A DNA stretch of 64,000 bases from a phage. This document shows, piece by piece, positions 30,043-41,010 of the stretch. Below the pieces are notes generated by a model, which worked only from the letters and a program-made list of their open reading frames with translations, was not told the origin of the DNA and made no database searches. Every line of letters starts with the position of its first letter. Within the stretch, counting starts at the first letter, position 1. Both the position numbers and the translations under genes were made by a program. Where the stretch lies: sequence record PZ019086.1; one strand, given 5' to 3'.

Positions 30043-30302
30043 ATACTGGCTTCTTTGAGTTTCGTTTTAGCAATAGTTAACTGATCAAGACTTTCAGCAT
30101 AATTCTTCGCGAATTCACAGTCTTCACAATTATCTAGTGCTTCCCAGAATTCATCGTATAAAGCGTCAAAGATAAGTCCTAAACGAACTTCAGCGTCTTT
30201 GATAGCATTCACTTTACCGATTTTCTCTTCAGTATGTGGTTTATAACCCTTAATATCTTCAATCATATTTGACTTCCTCGCCAGTACCCAAATCATATTC
30301 AA
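30000..30302 (-). CDS. Small helical protein at the map position of T4 vs.4 (Acb2, cyclic-oligonucleotide sponge); true start probably an internal Met
   Basis: Position three genes downstream of regB; size about 90-100 aa; identity by synteny only. Confidence 0.35.
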
Positions 30303-30480
30303 CTAAACGAATAGGTTCATGAATGCCATATCCCTGAACAGAAATTTCTGTCGTAGGATAAATTCCATCAATATCACCCATATTCCAGGCTTCATTAAAT
30401 TGCTGTTCGCCTGAATTACTAAACCACTCGGCGAAAGCATTTAGCACATCTTCAGAACCTTCAATAATTATCTTTGCCAT
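30259..30480 (-). CDS. Hypothetical small acidic protein
   Basis: 73-aa ORF. Confidence 0.45.
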   Translation of the reverse strand: MAKIIIEGSEDVLNAFAEWFSNSGEQQFNEAWNMGDIDGIYPTTEISVQGYGIHEPIRLVEYDLGTGEEVKYD

Positions 30481-30849: not shown

Positions 30850-31227
30850 TCAATTAGAAAATAAATTTATCCAGGATTGTTCTTTAATTAAAAACGGCTC
30901 AGAATCATATGCCATTAAACTTTGGGTAATTAATCCTTTAAAAGGTCCATCAATAAATTCCATGGTAAAATATGGAATTTTATTCATTAGCCGTGCATTA
31001 GGAGCAGTGCACAAAACTCTGCATCCTTTGAATACACCTTTTTGTAATTTGTATTGCTTGGGATAAAATTCGCTTAAAATGTTATTATTTGCTAAAATTT
31101 CAAAATGATTCACCAATTTATTTTTAATAGTTTTTGGCGAAAAATAAAGATATTCGAAAAGCTGAGTGTCTGTCATCATTGCATTCCGATTACGAAAAAC
31201 TGTGGACGAGTAATACCACCAATGCAA
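30850..31227 (-). CDS. Hypothetical protein
   Basis: 125-aa ORF. Confidence 0.5.
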
Positions 31228-31763
31228 CAGTTAATATTACAGCAGTGGTGTACAGTGTCAATATGGACACTATAAATCTTATCCATATCAGGAGATTTGA
31301 CAGGCTCATCAATTATATATAAAATTCGCGAAAGCGATAAACCTCTGAACTTGCTTCCTTTATTACCAATAAAACTGCGCACAGAATCAGTAAATAAACG
31401 AAAACGTATATCATCATTAGAATAACGCGAAAATTCCTTTTTAATGTTATTTGCAGAAATTTTAGCGTAAGCTGAAGTATTAGAAAGAACAATAACTGTT
31501 CCGCCATCATATAACCAATTAGCAGCAAAGTTAGTCACAGCAATTGATTTACCGGATTGACGTCCACCATCTATACGAAGTGTGCAATACTGTTTAAGTA
31601 AGTCTTCAAATGGTGGGATATAATCGTTTTTACAAATTTCTTCTACTCTAGCATCAGAATGGTGTGTAAAAGCATTCATCAGGGATAGATAAGGACCAGT
31701 TAAAAATGTTCTCATTTTGTTCTCTCTAAGTTTGGGCCATTCCGTGGCGCATGAATTGTCCAT
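31176..31763 (-). CDS. Hypothetical protein with a P-loop-like motif
   Basis: 195 aa; GGRQSGKS; C-terminal Cys/His cluster HHCCNINCC. Confidence 0.45.
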   Translation of the reverse strand: MDNSCATEWPKLRENKMRTFLTGPYLSLMNAFTHHSDARVEEICKNDYIPPFEDLLKQYCTLRIDGGRQSGKSIAVTNFAANWLYDGGTVIVLSNTSAYAKISANNIKKEFSRYSNDDIRFRLFTDSVRSFIGNKGSKFRGLSLSRILYIIDEPVKSPDMDKIYSVHIDTVHHCCNINCCIGGITRPQFFVIGMQ

Positions 31764-31892
31764 TTCTGTATTTACCCATTACCGCACTTGGGCTCGACCT
31801 TATTACAGGTTGGCGGGAATCCCTCACAGAATCATGAGGTCCAGCTTGTTCCCATTTTATTTGAATGTAAATAGGCCTATACTTAGGCCTTA

Positions 31893-32471
31893 TTAATTAC
31901 CACGGGCCGCATTAGCAACGGCGTAAGCATACTGAACATTAGCGTCTTTAAATGTACCTTTAGAGGTATCTATTTCTGCCTTAAAGCCGCCTTTAGCCAT
32001 AACATCGGCGAATTCTTTACGGAAAGCCATTGCATCGAGACCTTTCCATGATGATTTATGCTTGGCAAATTCAAGACCTGCGAAGTTGACAGCTTTAGCC
32101 AATTTATTATCAATGACCCATTTACCGGCTTTAGGCACAAACTTCGGGCCTTTTTGTTTAGAGAACAGTTTTAAATTCCAGCGACGAAGATCACTGTCGG
32201 CTTTAACAAAAGCTGCGTCTAAGTTACTAGCAACAACATCTTCAATATGAGCAAATTTAAGTCCGTCAACTTCAATATTTAAATCGGTACGCCAGCGAAG
32301 TCCTTCCCAAGCGAAAGCTTTAAAATCGGAAGCTTTTGTAGCTAAGTATCGTTCAATAGGGGCTGTTTTAGGGTCAAAGCCGTTTCCACCACGATAGTTC
32401 CACTCGTCCTTATTAATGCCTTTGGCCTTTACTACAGAAGCTTCAGCAATAAATTCTTGATACGTTTTCAT
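31893..32471 (-). CDS. ipIII: Internal protein III-like (head-packaged, injected protein) with capsid-targeting leader
   Basis: 192 aa; N-terminus MKTYQEFIAEA (capsid-targeting sequence cleaved by the prohead protease). Confidence 0.75.
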   Translation of the reverse strand: MKTYQEFIAEASVVKAKGINKDEWNYRGGNGFDPKTAPIERYLATKASDFKAFAWEGLRWRTDLNIEVDGLKFAHIEDVVASNLDAAFVKADSDLRRWNLKLFSKQKGPKFVPKAGKWVIDNKLAKAVNFAGLEFAKHKSSWKGLDAMAFRKEFADVMAKGGFKAEIDTSKGTFKDANVQYAYAVANAARGN

Positions 32472-32497
32472 TTTTGTTCCTATTGTTTTAATTCATG

Positions 32498-32812
32498 TTA
32501 TTCTTTAGGGAAGTTTTTAGAGTATGCGTCATAAAGTTTATTACCAATACGACGGAAGACTCTAGCTGCAAAACGGTTTTCAGGGTTTTTAATCATGATT
32601 TGCATCATGTAAGTTCCTGCATCCGAAAGAGCTTCTTCATAGTACCCATTAATTTCTTTAAGAGTCCTACGTTTACCACCAGGACCATCAACAGTAATTT
32701 TCCATTTACCTGTAGAAGTGCGGCTCGGTGGCTCAACTTGTTCAATCCAAATATAACCACCTTCAACGCGTTGGTTGGCGGATTCTGCAATAAATTCTTT
32801 ATATGTTTTCAT
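32498..32812 (-). CDS. ipII: Internal protein II-like with capsid-targeting leader
   Basis: 104 aa; N-terminus MKTYKEFIAES. Confidence 0.7.
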   Translation of the reverse strand: MKTYKEFIAESANQRVEGGYIWIEQVEPPSRTSTGKWKITVDGPGGKRRTLKEINGYYEEALSDAGTYMMQIMIKNPENRFAARVFRRIGNKLYDAYSKNFPKE

Positions 32813-32834
32813 TTTTGTTTCCTTATTTGTTTTG

Positions 32835-32880
32835 ATAGAGTAATTATACCATATTAATACTTAAGCGTAAACTGTTTAAG
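32835..32880 (-). promoter_or_regulatory. Early promoter (minus strand GTTTACG ... TATAAT)
   Basis: Plus strand gagtaattataccat...cgtaaac. Confidence 0.4.
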
Positions 32881-33136
32881 CTTTACCGCCAGAAATAATT
32901 CCGAAGGTGTTAAAATCATATCCAATATCGTCAACATCTACTTTAGGGCTTGCTACAACGTAAGCAATTTCACTACGTTTTGCATAGGTGTTTATTTCTC
33001 TACCATCGCCGCCTAGGAAAGAATACCCATTACGTTTTAATGAGCCAAAATCTTCGGCATCACCAACGAAAGCTTTAACTTTAAATTTGGGGCCTTTGAC
33101 ATCTGCTTCAGCGATAAATTCTTGATACATTTTCAT
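32876..33136 (-). CDS. Additional internal-protein-like ORF with capsid-targeting leader
   Basis: Starts MKMYQEFIAEA after a GGAGGA Shine-Dalgarno; about 87 aa. Confidence 0.6.
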   Translation of the reverse strand: MKMYQEFIAEADVKGPKFKVKAFVGDAEDFGSLKRNGYSFLGGDGREINTYAKRSEIAYVVASPKVDVDDIGYDFNTFGIISGGKA

Positions 33137-33154
33137 TTTTCCTCCAAGTAGTTG

Positions 33155-33200
33155 ATGAATGTATAGTATCAAAGTCCTTGGAGGAAGTAAACACTATTTT
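33155..33200 (-). promoter_or_regulatory. T4-type early promoter
   Basis: gttgatgaatgtatagtatca...agtaaac. Confidence 0.45.
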
Positions 33201-33475
33201 TCTGAAGCGCCTGAAATATATTTTTCAAGACGTTGTTTCATTAGCGAGCCGTTCTTAGCGATTTCTTCCGGTTTATCGCACATACGCAACAAGGCTTCAA
33301 GCTTAACGATATCGCTGGTACGTTCAAATTTGCGAGTATCTATCTTACTAGCAAGTTCAGAAATACGTGCTAATAGACTTTCAGCTTCAACCAAAGCTGC
33401 ACCTAGCTTAGTTGCAAATGTGTCGGTAGCTTCGTTAAGAATAGATTCCGATAAAAATTCACTATATGTTTTCAT
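33194..33475 (-). CDS. Additional internal-protein-like ORF with variant capsid-targeting leader
   Basis: 93 aa; N-terminus MKTYSEFLSES. Confidence 0.55.
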   Translation of the reverse strand: MKTYSEFLSESILNEATDTFATKLGAALVEAESLLARISELASKIDTRKFERTSDIVKLEALLRMCDKPEEIAKNGSLMKQRLEKYISGASEK

Positions 33476-33485
33476 ATATACGCTT

Positions 33486-34010
<525 letters not shown>

Positions 34011-38344: not shown

Positions 38345-38420
38345 CTGGTCGAGGCAGTAGGGATCGAACCTACGACCTAGGACTTAGAAGGTCCTTGCTC
38401 TTCCTTCTGAGCTATGCCTC
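38345..38420 (-). tRNA. tRNA-Arg (anticodon UCU), CCA encoded
   Basis: Hand-folded cloverleaf; anticodon loop CTTCTAA; T-loop GGTTCGATCC. Confidence 0.8.
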
Positions 38421-38424
38421 GGAT

Positions 38425-38499
38425 TTGGCGGACGTGATAGGATTCGAACCTATAACCAATCGCTTAACAGGCGATCGCTCTGCCATTGAGCTACACATC
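38425..38499 (-). tRNA. tRNA-Asn (anticodon GUU), CCA encoded
   Basis: Acceptor GGATGTG/CACGTCC; anticodon stem ATCGC/GCGAT; loop CTGTTAA. Confidence 0.7.
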
Positions 38500-38503
38500 C
38501 AAA

Positions 38504-38590
38504 TTGGTGGGGAGTGATGGAGTCGAACCACCCGAGTCGCAATGACAATGGATTTACAGTCCACACCGCTACCTCTACGGGATAACTCCC
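38504..38590 (-). tRNA. tRNA-Tyr (anticodon GUA), long variable arm, CCA encoded
   Basis: Acceptor GGGGAGT/ACTCCCC; anticodon loop CTGTAAA; 87 nt. Confidence 0.7.
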
Positions 38591-38603
38591 CTTAATTCTT
38601 AAT

Positions 38604-38678
38604 TTGGTGGCCCTGGGTGGAATTGAACCACCATCTGGCGATTATGAGTCGCTTGCTTGAACCTTCCAGCTACAGGGC
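38604..38678 (-). tRNA. tRNA with anticodon CAU (Ile lysidine-type or elongator Met)
   Basis: Acceptor GGCCCTG/CAGGGCC; anticodon loop CTCATAA. Confidence 0.7.
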
Positions 38679-38679
38679 C

Positions 38680-38755
38680 TTGGTGCTGATTGACGGAATC
38701 GAACCGCCGACCTTCTCATTACAAGTGAGTTGCTCTACCTACTGAGCTAAATCAG
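38680..38755 (-). tRNA. tRNA-Thr (anticodon UGU)
   Basis: Acceptor GCTGATT/AATCAGC; anticodon loop CTTGTAA. Confidence 0.8.
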
Positions 38756-38760
38756 CAAAA

Positions 38761-38850
38761 CTGGCGGAGGCGATAGGATTCGAACCTATGAGTCGCTGGA
38801 GCGACTGCCGGTTTTCAAGACCGGTGCATTAAACCACTCTGCCACGCCTC
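38761..38850 (-). tRNA. tRNA-Ser (anticodon UGA), long variable arm
   Basis: Acceptor GGAGGCG/CGCCTCC; anticodon loop CTTGAAA; 90 nt. Confidence 0.8.
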
Positions 38851-38852
38851 CA

Positions 38853-38926
38853 GTCTCCGTGGCAGGATTTGAACCTGCGACATTCTGCTCCCAAAGCAGA
38901 CGCTCTACCAAACTGAGCTACACGGA
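38853..38926 (-). tRNA. tRNA-Pro (anticodon UGG), CCA not encoded
   Basis: Acceptor CTCCGTG/CACGGAG; anticodon loop TTTGGGA; the next tRNA follows immediately with no CCA. Confidence 0.75.
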
Positions 38927-38936
38927 GTAAATTAAA

Positions 38937-39010
<74 letters not shown>

Positions 39011-39015
39011 CAAAT

Positions 39016-39102
39016 TTGGTGCGAGAAGTGGGACTCGAACCCACAAGGAAATCATTCCGCAGCATTTTAAGTGCTGTGCCTTTACCAATTTGACCATTCT
39101 CG
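39016..39102 (-). tRNA. tRNA-Leu (anticodon UAA), long variable arm
   Basis: Acceptor GCGAGAA/TTCTCGC; anticodon loop CTTAAAA; 87 nt. Confidence 0.8.
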
Positions 39103-39103
39103 C

Positions 39104-39176
39104 GCTGGGAATAAAGGACTCGAACCTTTGCATCTAGCAGTCAAAGTGCTATGCCTTACCAACTTGGCTAATTCCC
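39104..39176 (-). tRNA. tRNA-Gln (anticodon UUG), CCA not encoded
   Basis: Acceptor TGGGAAT/ATTCCCA; anticodon loop CTTTGAC. Confidence 0.75.
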
Positions 39177-39265
39177 AATTATTAACAAAGGCTCTCAAAC
39201 AAGAACCCTTGATGATAGAGGGGGTATTAATCAGTGCGATATAAGTTAATAATAACACATAATTC

Positions 39266-39817: not shown

Positions 39818-40082
39818 TGCAACGTAATTTCAAAGGATTCTTGAAAATATCATATTCAAGAGGGCCTTTTTCTGTTTCAATAAAGAAATCAAAATTTACT
39901 GTATTAAATTTACGGTCTTCCTTCACTAATTTAACTTGAGAAGATGAACGGTCAATGTAAACCTTTTCAACTTCAAAACATGTTAAAATGCCATAATCAT
40001 CAATCAAGGCTTTAGCTGCTTCTTGATCATATTTATATCCATTTTCAATGGATGATACTTTCGCATAAAGAATCATTATCAA
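39786..40082 (-). CDS. Hypothetical protein
   Basis: 98-aa ORF. Confidence 0.45.
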   Translation of the reverse strand: MIMILYAKVSSIENGYKYDQEAAKALIDDYGILTCFEVEKVYIDRSSSQVKLVKEDRKFNTVNFDFFIETEKGPLEYDIFKNPLKLRCIEYNYINMVR

Positions 40083-40498
40083 CCTTCATCAACAATAGTA
40101 TGCGTATTGGCATTTACAATTTGCCACCAATCAAAGCGATTAGAACCATAATCTGGTTTGTTTTCATTTTCTTTGATGATGTCACGGAGTTCATCTTCAG
40201 TGGCGGCTTTCGCGATTAAATCAGCATATCCACCACGAGGATAATAATTATCACCTGCAAAAAGTAAAAAGTTTGGTTTAATGTTATTGAACTCTTCAAG
40301 AGTAATAACTTTTCCTGACGGTTGAACAATCTCTACATATTTATATCCCAATTTTTGAGCAGCATCTACTGCTTCAAGCAAAGTATCATGAGCCCATCCA
40401 ATTTGACAACTTGGCTTTTCAGATGGATTAGCTTGATAATCCGCATACACTTTATACATTCTATTCACCTTTAGAAATTTTATCCATAACGATAGCAA
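40079..40498 (-). CDS. Hypothetical protein
   Basis: 139-aa ORF. Confidence 0.5.
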   Translation of the reverse strand: MLSLWIKFLKVNRMYKVYADYQANPSEKPSCQIGWAHDTLLEAVDAAQKLGYKYVEIVQPSGKVITLEEFNNIKPNFLLFAGDNYYPRGGYADLIAKAATEDELRDIIKENENKPDYGSNRFDWWQIVNANTHTIVDEG

Positions 40499-40722: not shown

Positions 40723-41010
40723 TTACAAAAGATTTTTAGCAATAATCTTGAGATGTGCCGCAGAAATGTGTTTAGCTTTAAACAACGCAGTTTCTTCAGC
40801 AGGAGAGATAATGATTGTAGCACCATCCTTTTTAGCAGACCACCCATCGCCTAGGTAAACAGTACCTTTGATTTCTTCGCCATCAACCAGACTAATCATT
40901 GGTTTACCTTCTCGTCCTTTATTTGCTTTAATAACTTCAGAAGTAAGAGTAGCTTCGGTAATGGTAGAAACCGGGGTAGTTGTAGAAGTAAATTCTTTAA
41001 ATGTTTTCAT
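40723..41010 (-). CDS. ipI: Internal protein I precursor (IPI; the mature IPI* is an injected anti-restriction protein in T4)
   Basis: 95 aa; body ATLTSEVIKANKGREGKPMISLVDGEEIKGTVYLGDGWSAKKDG... matches my recollection of T4 IPI; leader MKTFKEFTS... is a variant capsid-targeting sequence. Confidence 0.8.
   Translation of the reverse strand: MKTFKEFTSTTTPVSTITEATLTSEVIKANKGREGKPMISLVDGEEIKGTVYLGDGWSAKKDGATIIISPAEETALFKAKHISAAHLKIIAKNLL

Follow-up and report, generated by a model that had tools for sequence, protein, structure and literature searches.

The internal proteins (IPs) of T-even phages are encoded at two polymorphic loci (Repoila et al., 1994, EMBO J 13:4181, as related in PMC3012670 and PMC12373910). 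According to these accounts, the loci carry unrelated small ORFs that have only an N-terminal leader in common and that vary in number, order and identity, with at least 10 Ip families described (PMC3012670, PMC12373910). The leader is a capsid-targeting sequence (CTS) of about 10 residues; under the rules of Mullaney and Black (1996), in the form summarised in PMC9026906, residues 4 and 7 are aromatic and determine targeting, and the gp21 motif given in PMC9026906 is L/I-X-E. For Ip1, Ip2 and Ip3, inhibition of type IV enzymes has been shown, with a different GmrSD for each, and the same role was proposed in that study for all proteins of both Ip loci (PMC12373910). T4 Ip3 inhibits GmrS1/GmrSD2 of ECOR17 (PMC12373910; PMC9391042); ipIII is required on this strain, and Ip3 lacking its CTS is active in the cytoplasm (PMC9391042). 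A fourth CTS protein, Bas37_0260, is unrelated and acts as an inhibitor of McrBC (preprint 10.1101/2025.11.20.689424).

The DNA that we analysed, a 64-kb stretch referred to here as the window, comes from a Tequatrovirus (T4-like phage). It is matched by 850 phage records, of which IME340 (vB_EcoM_IME340, NC_054904) is the best at 96.9% nucleotide identity. Gene order from vs to 57B is collinear with T4, and the T4 genes vs and regB through nudE are all found in collinear order, with the exception of denV and ipII. The window ends at gene 15, and the genes for gp21 and gp22 are beyond its edge. Genes 21 and 22 are core genes in all Tequatrovirus phages. Bases 31873-34008 of the window correspond to the hyperplastic region between e and vs.8, which in T-even phages is one of two classical polymorphic IP loci (Table 1).

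Between e and vs.8 lie four consecutive minus-strand ORFs, in the order e-IP93-IP86-IP104-ipIII-vs.8. The T4 region has the same interval, flanks and CTS leader, an orthologous ipIII, and, between genes, the same type of PeSL (promoter-early stem-loop) element. In T4, however, the order is e-ipIII-ipII-denV-vs.8, such that the window is without ipII and denV and has three non-T4 IP genes, and ipIII adjoins vs.8 in the window and e in T4. The same four IP genes are present in IME340 and about 150 similar Tequatrovirus genomes, with the order e-IP93-[denV]-IP86-IP104-ipIII-vs.8; these genomes retain denV, whereas the window is without the 421 bp between two AGGAAA copies. Across T4, T2, IME340, G8, ECO07P2, SP18 and the present window, the e-vs.8 interval has seven different gene orders. 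Compared with the T-even polymorphic IP loci described previously, the window is one more combination, the same in kind: the T-even internal-protein cassette is real and ordinary, and there is no new kind of element in the window. The reading of the locus as a whole, namely an IP locus for head-packaged, injected proteins, remodelled by cassette shuffling and by a 421-bp deletion of denV, is one that we consider very probable.

Table 1. Features of the e-to-vs.8 internal-protein locus and of the second IP locus (coordinates are positions in the window)
Feature	Coordinates	Strand	Notes
Terminator-like hairpin AGGCCTAAGTATAGGCCT	31873..31890	-	Directly after ipIII stop codon
ipIII orthologue (Ip3), 192 aa	31893..32471	-	phrog_5341, E = 2e-117; leader MKTYQEFIAE/A
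IP104, 104 aa, Ip10 family, predicted CTS protein	32498..32812	-	phrog_3966, E = 7e-34
Early-type promoter-like site TTTACG-N17-TATAAT upstream of IP104	32843..32871	-	10/12 matches, TG extension
IP86, 86 aa, RB69ORF125c / SP18 gp123 family, predicted CTS internal protein	32876..33136	-	phrog_2667 'internal head protein'
denV deletion junction, single AGGAAA left	33138..33143	-	BLAST segments overlap by 6 nt
PeSL-type element	33139..33192	-	TTTACT (33186-33191)-N17-TACTAT (33163-33168) in 10-bp hairpin
IP93, 93 aa, Ip5-like family, predicted CTS internal protein	33194..33475	-	phrog_3499 'internal head protein', E = 1e-46
Gene e (endolysin), conserved upstream flank	33486..33974	-	94.4% identity to T4 e; Pfam Phage_lysozyme; start codon 33974
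Two T4 late-promoter motifs TATAAATA upstream of e	33988-33995, 34001-34008	-	Exact motif matches
41-nt direct repeat, 4 copies	32440-32480, 32781-32821, 33105-33145, 33444-33484	-	Post-RBS spacer, ATG, CTS codons
ipI (T4-type Ip1, 95 aa), second IP locus, fifth IP gene in window	40723..41010	-	98.9% identity to T4 IPI

The initial annotation, made from the DNA letters, had recognised four consecutive ORFs with leaders of the MKTYQEFIAEA type and had taken these leaders to be capsid-targeting, and both observations were borne out. The leaders read MKTYSEFLSES (IP93), MKMYQEFIAEA (IP86), MKTYKEFIAES (IP104) and MKTYQEFIAEA (IP192, the ipIII product). Scanned in six frames, the window contains the pattern M[KR]xYx[ED]F[ILVM]x[ED] four times, only at the starts of the four ORFs, compared with a mean of 0.003 and a maximum of 1 in 300 first-order Markov random windows. 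The aromatic targeting determinants Y4 and F7 are present in all four leaders, and residues 8-10 of each form a gp21 site, L/I-X-E, with a small residue next in line (IAE/A, IAE/S, IAE/A and LSE/S), so that residues 4, 7, 8 and 10 fit the experimental rules (PMC9026906). On these residues, the four leaders are T4 capsid-targeting sequences, and the four gene bodies, each behind the same 10-residue CTS, are mutually unrelated. It had also been stated that CTS-bearing internal proteins are injected with the DNA, which is correct as a general statement of established T4 biology. If the same holds here, the CTS proteins would be built into the prohead scaffolding core, the gp21 prohead protease would cleave their leaders after Glu10, and the processed IPs would stay among the packaged DNA and be injected along with it in the following infection, acting ahead of any phage gene expression. 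A literature search for virion proteomics or mass spectrometry of the Ip5-like, RB69ORF125c-like and Ip10 families found none.

By alignment, ipIII is the only cassette gene orthologous to T4. Its product is 95.8% identical to T4 IPIII over 192 of 193 residues (E = 1e-138), its predicted mature form has a pI of about 9.7, and it is the orthologue of the T4 inhibitor of ECOR17 GmrS1/GmrSD2 type IV restriction. A further T4-type gene, ipI, is found at the second IP locus (Table 1); its product has a long leader (MKTFKEF...ITE/A) and corresponds, by its identity to T4 IPI, to the inhibitor of GmrSD-CT596. In contrast to the initial annotation, which had expected ipII and ipIII plus two extra genes, ipII is absent. 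A tblastn search of the whole window for T4 Ip2, the inhibitor of GmrSD/BrxU of ECOR21, gave nothing at E <= 1e-3, and therefore the cassette contains three non-T4 genes rather than two.

None of these three genes is new: by homology they fall into families for which hundreds of T-even genomes already carry annotations. Identity to deposited phage genes is 97-100%, the genes are present in 190-497 phage genomes, and 'internal head/virion protein' families of PHROG were assigned for three of the four cassette proteins. IP93 has homologues in 497 phage records, with identity reaching >=90% in about 235, and is 47.6% identical to Ip5 of T2 and RB32 over 84 residues (E = 4e-22). It can be considered a distant paralogue of Ip5; the two occur at different IP loci, and the IP93 leader is the shorter. 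Cleavage is predicted at MKTYSEFLSE/S, with a second possible gp21 site (ILNE15/A) that aligns with ITE15/S of T2 Ip5, and the predicted mature protein has a pI of about 6.3. IP86 has homologues in 218 phage records (72.7% identity to SP18 gp123) and would be cut at MKMYQEFIAE/A, giving a mature form of 76 aa with a pI of about 6.4. A mechanical ORF list began this gene at a TTG (33172); we rejected this start, the real one being the ATG at 33136, 5 nt past GGAGG. IP104 (predicted cut MKTYKEFIAE/S; mature form 94 aa, pI ~9.6) has homologues in 190 phage records, is 71% identical over 104 residues to Ip10 of SP18 and VR25 (E = 7e-58; Ip10 is also annotated in phage Pol), and is 52-55% identical to proteins of Karamvirus-type Enterobacter and Klebsiella phages. 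Classical IPs are basic, in contrast to the mature forms of IP86 and IP93, whose pI is close to neutral (6.3-6.4).

Wider searches added little to these assignments. No family was found for the four cassette proteins by Pfam and NCBIfam scans. A phmmer search with IP104 against 1.84 billion cluster representatives returned one true homologue cluster (P0014, 54% identity). Five further hits, all to very long proteins with repeats (FG-GAP, RTX, filamin, CBM and Calx-beta), were set aside as artefacts of composition or repeats, given that their families are unrelated and that the matches are spread over many short segments. In the PDB, a sequence search with IP104, IP86 and IP93 had no hit below E = 0.05, and matches to filamin, HLA and sarcosine oxidase were treated as noise. 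AlphaFold2 models built from shallow alignments were too poor to use, with a pLDDT of 52.6 for IP86 (10 rows) and 57.9 for IP104 (4 rows).

denV encodes T4 endonuclease V, a pyrimidine-dimer glycosylase, and is a textbook UV-repair gene. Its absence between the cassette and regB, already noticed in the initial annotation, extends across the whole window: tblastn of T4 DenV against the 64 kb gave a best E of 7.5, at an unrelated place. In the closest relatives, denV is located between IP93 and IP86, and IME340-type relatives have one copy of AGGAAA in the Shine-Dalgarno region of denV and another, 421 bp away, in that of IP86. The junction in the window retains no denV codon. By this comparison, denV was removed by a 421-bp deletion between the two Shine-Dalgarno copies of AGGAAA, a microhomology of 6 bp, and the deletion is recent. 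The event fused the promoter, hairpin and Shine-Dalgarno sequence of denV to IP86. The exact denV-less junction was not found in INPHARED (50,697 records), where all of the best matches listed were split by denV, and had no match in IMG/VR with a 31-mer or a degenerate 24-mer. Other losses include a 310-bp internal deletion in G8, the removal of denV and most of IP86 in ECO07P2, and the absence of denV from T2; at least three independent losses beyond this one are seen in relatives, and the gene has been repeatedly discarded in the clade.

The locus also carries the sequences by which such cassettes could be exchanged. The 41-nt direct repeats at the gene starts are 88-90% identical among three copies and 63% for the IP93 copy. 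Relative to G8, the boundaries of the presence or absence of IP104 fall inside the repeat, where both copies align with the same 52 nt of G8. Boundaries within a repeat of 41-52 nt, composed of RBS and leader, fit cassette shuffling by recombination between repeats, and the 41-nt repeats are likely substrates for cassette gain and loss. Repoila and colleagues are said to have proposed recombination in the conserved leader. The set of cassettes is probably reshuffled both through the RBS and CTS repeats and through recombination between PeSL elements.

The putative promoter before IP86 agrees with the PeSL consensus published for PST/T4, TTTACW-N17-TAYWAT (PMC4122927), with flanking stem arms. 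The 10-bp stem is perfect and pairs with the GGAGG Shine-Dalgarno sequence (fold -17.8 kcal/mol, z = -3.2), and an identical element, denV's promoter and 5´ UTR, precedes denV in IME340, G8, ECO07P2 and T4. As in described mobile PeSL cassettes of T4-type phages (Arbiol 2010, PMC2839356; Comeau 2014, PMC4122927), the IP86 element is found in a hyperplastic region beside variable ORFs. The denV deletion used the Shine-Dalgarno microhomology rather than the PeSL itself, and the IP104 indel appears to have used the CTS repeat. The promoter-like site upstream of IP104 has no stem comparable to that of the PeSL before IP86; in G8-type phages, the same TTTACG-N17-TATAAT element is directly upstream of ipIII. 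The late-promoter motifs upstream of e are the likely late start of an e-IP93-IP86-IP104-ipIII transcription unit, and the hairpin after ipIII is probably its 3´ end.

Several other explanations of this arrangement were weighed. We give practically no credence to the possibility that sequencing error or ORF calling has broken the canonical ipII/ipIII pair into four ORFs. When the alignment to T4 ipII and ipIII proposed in the initial annotation was run, T4 IPII matched the window ORFs at residues 1-13, the leader, and no further, and IP93, IP86 and IP104 had no similarity to T4 IPII or IPIII past the first 11-13 residues. The four ORFs are not a mis-split pair because each has its own ATG, with its own Shine-Dalgarno sequence, and full-length homologues in hundreds of independent phage genomes. 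That denV was relocated rather than lost is conceivable in that the window covers only 64 kb of a genome of ~167 kb, but in all Tevenvirinae relatives inspected denV is within the e-vs.8 interval, and a clean deletion scar is found exactly where the closest relatives have the gene; we regard relocation as very improbable. Decay of one or more cassette genes, especially IP86, would leave a remnant or a poorly expressed gene, its Shine-Dalgarno sequence caught in a hairpin behind an early promoter after the denV deletion. IP86 may be dispensable or decaying because truncations or frameshifts affect its homologues in several relatives (P0007, P0010-P0012, UFV13 and FL44), most of the gene is gone in ECO07P2, and the GGAGG is paired here. 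Yet the window has an intact IP86 ORF, with 91-98% identity to the intact copies of >100 phages, and the same hairpin and promoter design drives denV in T4 and relatives, where transcripts started in the loop free the Shine-Dalgarno sequence. We consider the remnant explanation quite unlikely.

The three non-T4 proteins of this cassette have the same leader and loci as Ip1, Ip2, Ip3 and Bas37_0260 and a similar small size, and no sequence in common with them outside the CTS. Bas37_0260 was examined as a possible relative of each IP in the window and matched in the CTS alone; its neighbour, Bas37_0261, is a T2-type Ip5. By association with these inhibitors, we lean slightly towards the Ip5-like, RB69ORF125c-like and Ip10 proteins being injected inhibitors of further variants among the modification-dependent type IV enzymes that attack glucosyl-hmC DNA. 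The suggestion in the initial annotation that the extra ORFs are anti-defence candidates thus stands as the best functional guess; as a novel idea it does not, since it is already in print (PMC12373910). A rather unlikely alternative is that the three are generic head-filling or DNA-associated proteins, which neutralise charge or help packaging and ejection, have no specific host target, and have diversified by neutral drift. Classical IPs are abundant, at ~300 copies apiece, are basic and associate with DNA when salt is low (PMC9026906), mature IP104 is likewise basic, and ten other ip genes gave no inhibition of five additional GmrSD systems (PMC12373910). However, all four IP families of established function are specific inhibitors of type IV restriction, and mature IP86 and IP93 are not basic. 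In addition, the unrelated bodies are each conserved at 48-73% identity across phage species or genera, which argues for selection on specific folds. It is also possible, if improbable, that one of IP93, IP86 and IP104 targets a defence other than GmrSD or McrBC, such as an abortive-infection sensor or the 5hmC DNA glycosylase defence described recently. Of the three, the two without a basic mature form, IP93 and IP86, would be the most plausible choices. If this were true, the IP loci would serve generally as 'first-strike' anti-defence islands instead of being dedicated to type IV enzymes.

On the inhibitor reading that we favor, the locus would set which wild hosts a T-even phage infects, because each injected protein neutralises one modification-dependent restriction variant, and catalogues of IP repertoires would be useful for choosing therapy phages. 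The window provides a clean, datable example of two remodelling processes, leader-repeat exchange and microhomology deletion. The Ip5-like, RB69ORF125c-like and Ip10 families are widespread, and are reasonable candidates for anti-restriction screens of the type that succeeded for Ip1, Ip2, Ip3 and Bas37_0260.

The four consecutive leader-bearing ORFs lie between e and vs.8 in what is, judged by sequence, a Tequatrovirus (T4-like) genome: a 1.9-kb query spanning the cassette matched 850 phage records, with IME340 at the top (96.9% identity), and the T4 proteins vs, regB through vs.8, ipIII, e, nudE, the tRNA region, ipI and 57B are collinear on the minus strand. The N-termini are exactly as the initial annotation gave them, and a scan of all six frames across the 64-kb window places the leader pattern nowhere except at these ORF starts, far beyond chance (4 versus a mean of 0.003 in random windows of matched dinucleotide make-up). 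For packaging, the N-terminal 10 residues of IPIII are enough; in such a capsid-targeting sequence (CTS), positions 4 and 7 act in targeting and positions 8 and 10 in processing, and the prohead protease gp21 cleaves after L/I-X-E (PMC9026906). Each of the four leaders carries Y4, F7, I/L8 and E10 with Ala or Ser next, and thus fits these experimentally defined rules, as would be expected of the capsid-targeting role proposed for them. The mature N-terminus of IP93 is uncertain because of a second candidate gp21 site, LNE15/A, which aligns with ITE15/S of T2 Ip5. Predicted mature IP104 is basic, like classical IPs, and mature IP86 and IP93 are near-neutral. The window ends at gene 15, with genes 21 and 22 beyond its end.

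Features of the cassette and related elements; the late and early-type promoters and the terminator-like hairpin are predictions from sequence
Feature	Position	Strand	Remark
e	33486-33974	-	one flank of cassette
IP93	33194-33475	-	ORF between e and vs.8
IP86	32876-33136	-	ORF between e and vs.8
IP104	32498-32812	-	ORF between e and vs.8
IP192 (ipIII)	31893-32471	-	ORF between e and vs.8
vs.8	31179-31763	-	other flank of cassette
ipI (T4-type IPI)	40723-41010		fifth CTS protein in window; 98.9% identity to T4
Two late-promoter motifs (TATAAATA)			upstream of e
Terminator-like hairpin	31873-31890		directly after ipIII
Early-type promoter, TTTACG-N17-TATAAT			upstream of IP104
PeSL-type (promoter-early stem-loop) element, TTTACT-N17-TACTAT			upstream of IP86, within 10-bp hairpin

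IP192 is the T4 IPIII orthologue (95.8% identity, full length) and the sole T4 orthologue among the four. IP93, IP86 and IP104 have no similarity to T4 IPII or IPIII past the first 11-13 residues and no resemblance to one another, and no ipII counterpart was found anywhere in the 64-kb window. The cassette therefore holds one T4-type and three non-T4 genes rather than ipII, ipIII and two extras, as had been supposed; alignment to the T4 pair bore out ipIII and left ipII unmatched.

These three are already known genes, not new ones. IP104 is present in 190 deposited phage genomes, shares 71% identity with an Ip10-annotated protein of Shigella phage SP18 and VR25, and has homologues (52-55%) adjoining the lysozyme gene in Enterobacter, Klebsiella and Kosakonia T4-like phages. 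IP86, present in 218 genomes, shares 73% identity with SP18 gp123 (annotated "similar to RB69ORF125c"), and IP93, found at >=90% identity in ~235 genomes, matches at 48% identity the Ip5 proteins of T2, RB32 and Bas37, whose genes lie at the other IP locus. PHROGs classes three of the four cassette proteins as "internal head/virion protein"; sequence searches of Pfam, NCBIfam and PDB gave no match, and AlphaFold models were too low in quality for structure search. An exhaustive profile search with IP104 recovered one genuine homologue cluster, its repeat-protein matches being rejected as spurious.

Gene order from e to vs.8 differed in every lineage inspected: e-IP93-IP86-IP104-ipIII in the window, e-IP93-denV-IP86-IP104-ipIII in IME340, e-IP93-denV remnant-IP86-ipIII in G8, e-IP93-denV/IP86 fusion remnant-IP104-ipIII-ipIV in ECO07P2 (the T2-type IpIV lying between ipIII and vs.8), e-denV-Ip10-gp123-gp122 in SP18 and e-ipIV in T2. 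Thus ipIII adjoins vs.8 in the window, whereas T4 has e-ipIII-ipII-denV-vs.8. The window order is an instance of the T-even IP-locus polymorphism described since 1994, as relayed in PMC3012670 and PMC12373910. A 41-nt direct repeat recurs at all four gene starts (three copies 88-90% identical) and takes in the spacer that follows the ribosome-binding site, the start codon ATG and the codons of the CTS. G8 lacks IP104, and one 52-nt G8 stretch aligns to both the IP104 and ipIII starts of the window; the boundaries of IP104 presence or absence therefore fall within the leader-coding repeat, the position that unequal homologous exchange between such repeats would give.

denV, the endonuclease V gene for UV repair, had been reported missing between the cassette and regB, and T4 DenV as query found no match anywhere in the 64-kb window. 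The closest relatives carry denV between IP93 and IP86. Both sides match in the alignment with IME340, with a 6-nt overlap at 33138-33143. In IME340, the Shine-Dalgarno regions of denV and IP86 each contain AGGAAA, the IP86 copy lying 421 bp downstream; the window has a single copy, at the junction, so a 421-bp deletion has removed denV exactly, leaving the IP86 start codon fused to the promoter, hairpin and Shine-Dalgarno of denV. denV could instead have relocated outside the 64-kb window, but this is unlikely, as the deletion scar at the expected site speaks against it. The deletion is probably recent, since the denV-less junction was found neither in a 50,697-record phage collection, where the best hits were all denV-split, nor in IMG/VR.

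Other lineages lost denV in varied ways. In G8 (L002 4083-4195) a 104-bp remnant survives an internal deletion of 310 bp, which lies between ATGACCCGT and ATGTCCCGT; ECO07P2 (L008 2250-2440, 770-1243) lost denV along with most of IP86, of which the last ~33 nt are now joined to the first 21 nt of denV; and T2 lacks denV wholly. The G8 and ECO07P2 losses are independent events, and T-even denV loss is therefore recurrent and unsurprising. Absence of denV is the classical basis of the higher UV sensitivity of T2 relative to T4.

The element upstream of IP86 fits the published PST/T4 PeSL consensus (PMC4122927), and in T4 the same kind of element precedes ipIII, ipII and denV. Its hairpin (-17.8 kcal/mol, z = -3.2) includes the GGAGG Shine-Dalgarno in the 3' arm. 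By analogy, the ribosome-binding site would be hidden by the hairpin in long read-through transcripts and would stay free in those initiated within the loop.

Several neighboring sites also vary. Between the e stop codon (33486-33488) and the IP93 start codon (33473-33475) lies a 14-bp tandem duplication (AAGCGTATATATGA twice; 33472-33499); these genes share an ATGA overlap in G8, and in IME340 an extra TA extends e, reading into IP93. The e/IP93 boundary is a minor hotspot for indels. In annotated T4 Vs.8, residues 1-41 map to another frame than the rest (31705-31827, 31179-31763), this region also overlapping the terminator-like hairpin of ipIII; relatives have only the short form annotated, starting at MRTFLTG. 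Either the window phage carries a frameshift or the long T4 N-terminus is an annotation artefact. T4 Vs.5 matches 30306-30480 as two pieces in different frames; the window, like IME340, has a 73-aa ORF (30259-30480), and the T4 gene is 58 aa. A T2-like 10-tRNA cluster (Arg, Asn, Tyr, Met-CAT, Thr, Ser, Pro, Gly, Leu, Gln) occupies 38346-39177, and neither e.7 nor segB, the homing endonuclease that interrupts the T4 tRNA cluster, had a match in the window. The trna.3 homologue adjoining the ipI locus (40082-40474) has 55% identity to T4, and trna.2, trna.4, ipI and 57B around it have 93-100%; the divergence is a local replacement within the second IP locus.

The anti-restriction role ascribed to IPI* holds, as it inhibits GmrSD of strain CT596 (PMC3012670). 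T4 growth on ECOR17 requires ipIII, whose product works in the cytoplasm even when the CTS is lacking (PMC9391042); Ip2 inhibits GmrSD of ECOR21 and Ip3 inhibits GmrS1/GmrSD2 of ECOR17, with no cross-protection (PMC12373910). Those authors name GmrSD variants as the probable targets of every protein encoded at the two Ip loci; in the same 2025 study, ten further ip genes gave no inhibition of five additional active GmrSD systems (PMC12373910). McrBC is inhibited by Bas37_0260, a fourth CTS protein that is unrelated to the others (preprint 10.1101/2025.11.20.689424). IP93, IP86 and IP104 have no relation to Ip1, Ip2, Ip3 or Bas37_0260 beyond the leader. The suggestion of injected anti-defense proteins matches the current view of the field and extends to these three families by association; purely on that ground, the best-supported reading, to which we lean slightly, is that they are injected type IV restriction enzyme inhibitors. 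IP86 is frameshifted or truncated in several relatives (homologues P0007 and P0010-P0012, KU867876 (UFV13), PP400790 (FL44)). The frameshifts show it to be dispensable in some settings, and the broken copies suggest ongoing pseudogenisation of this IP family in some lineages.

The cassette is real and was correctly recognised in the initial annotation, but in kind it is ordinary, since this polymorphic locus has long been known and is well annotated. Its residual value lies in three widespread IP families that are candidates for anti-restriction screens. Specific to the window are only its particular gene combination and the clean 421-bp denV deletion rewiring IP86 to the denV control region.
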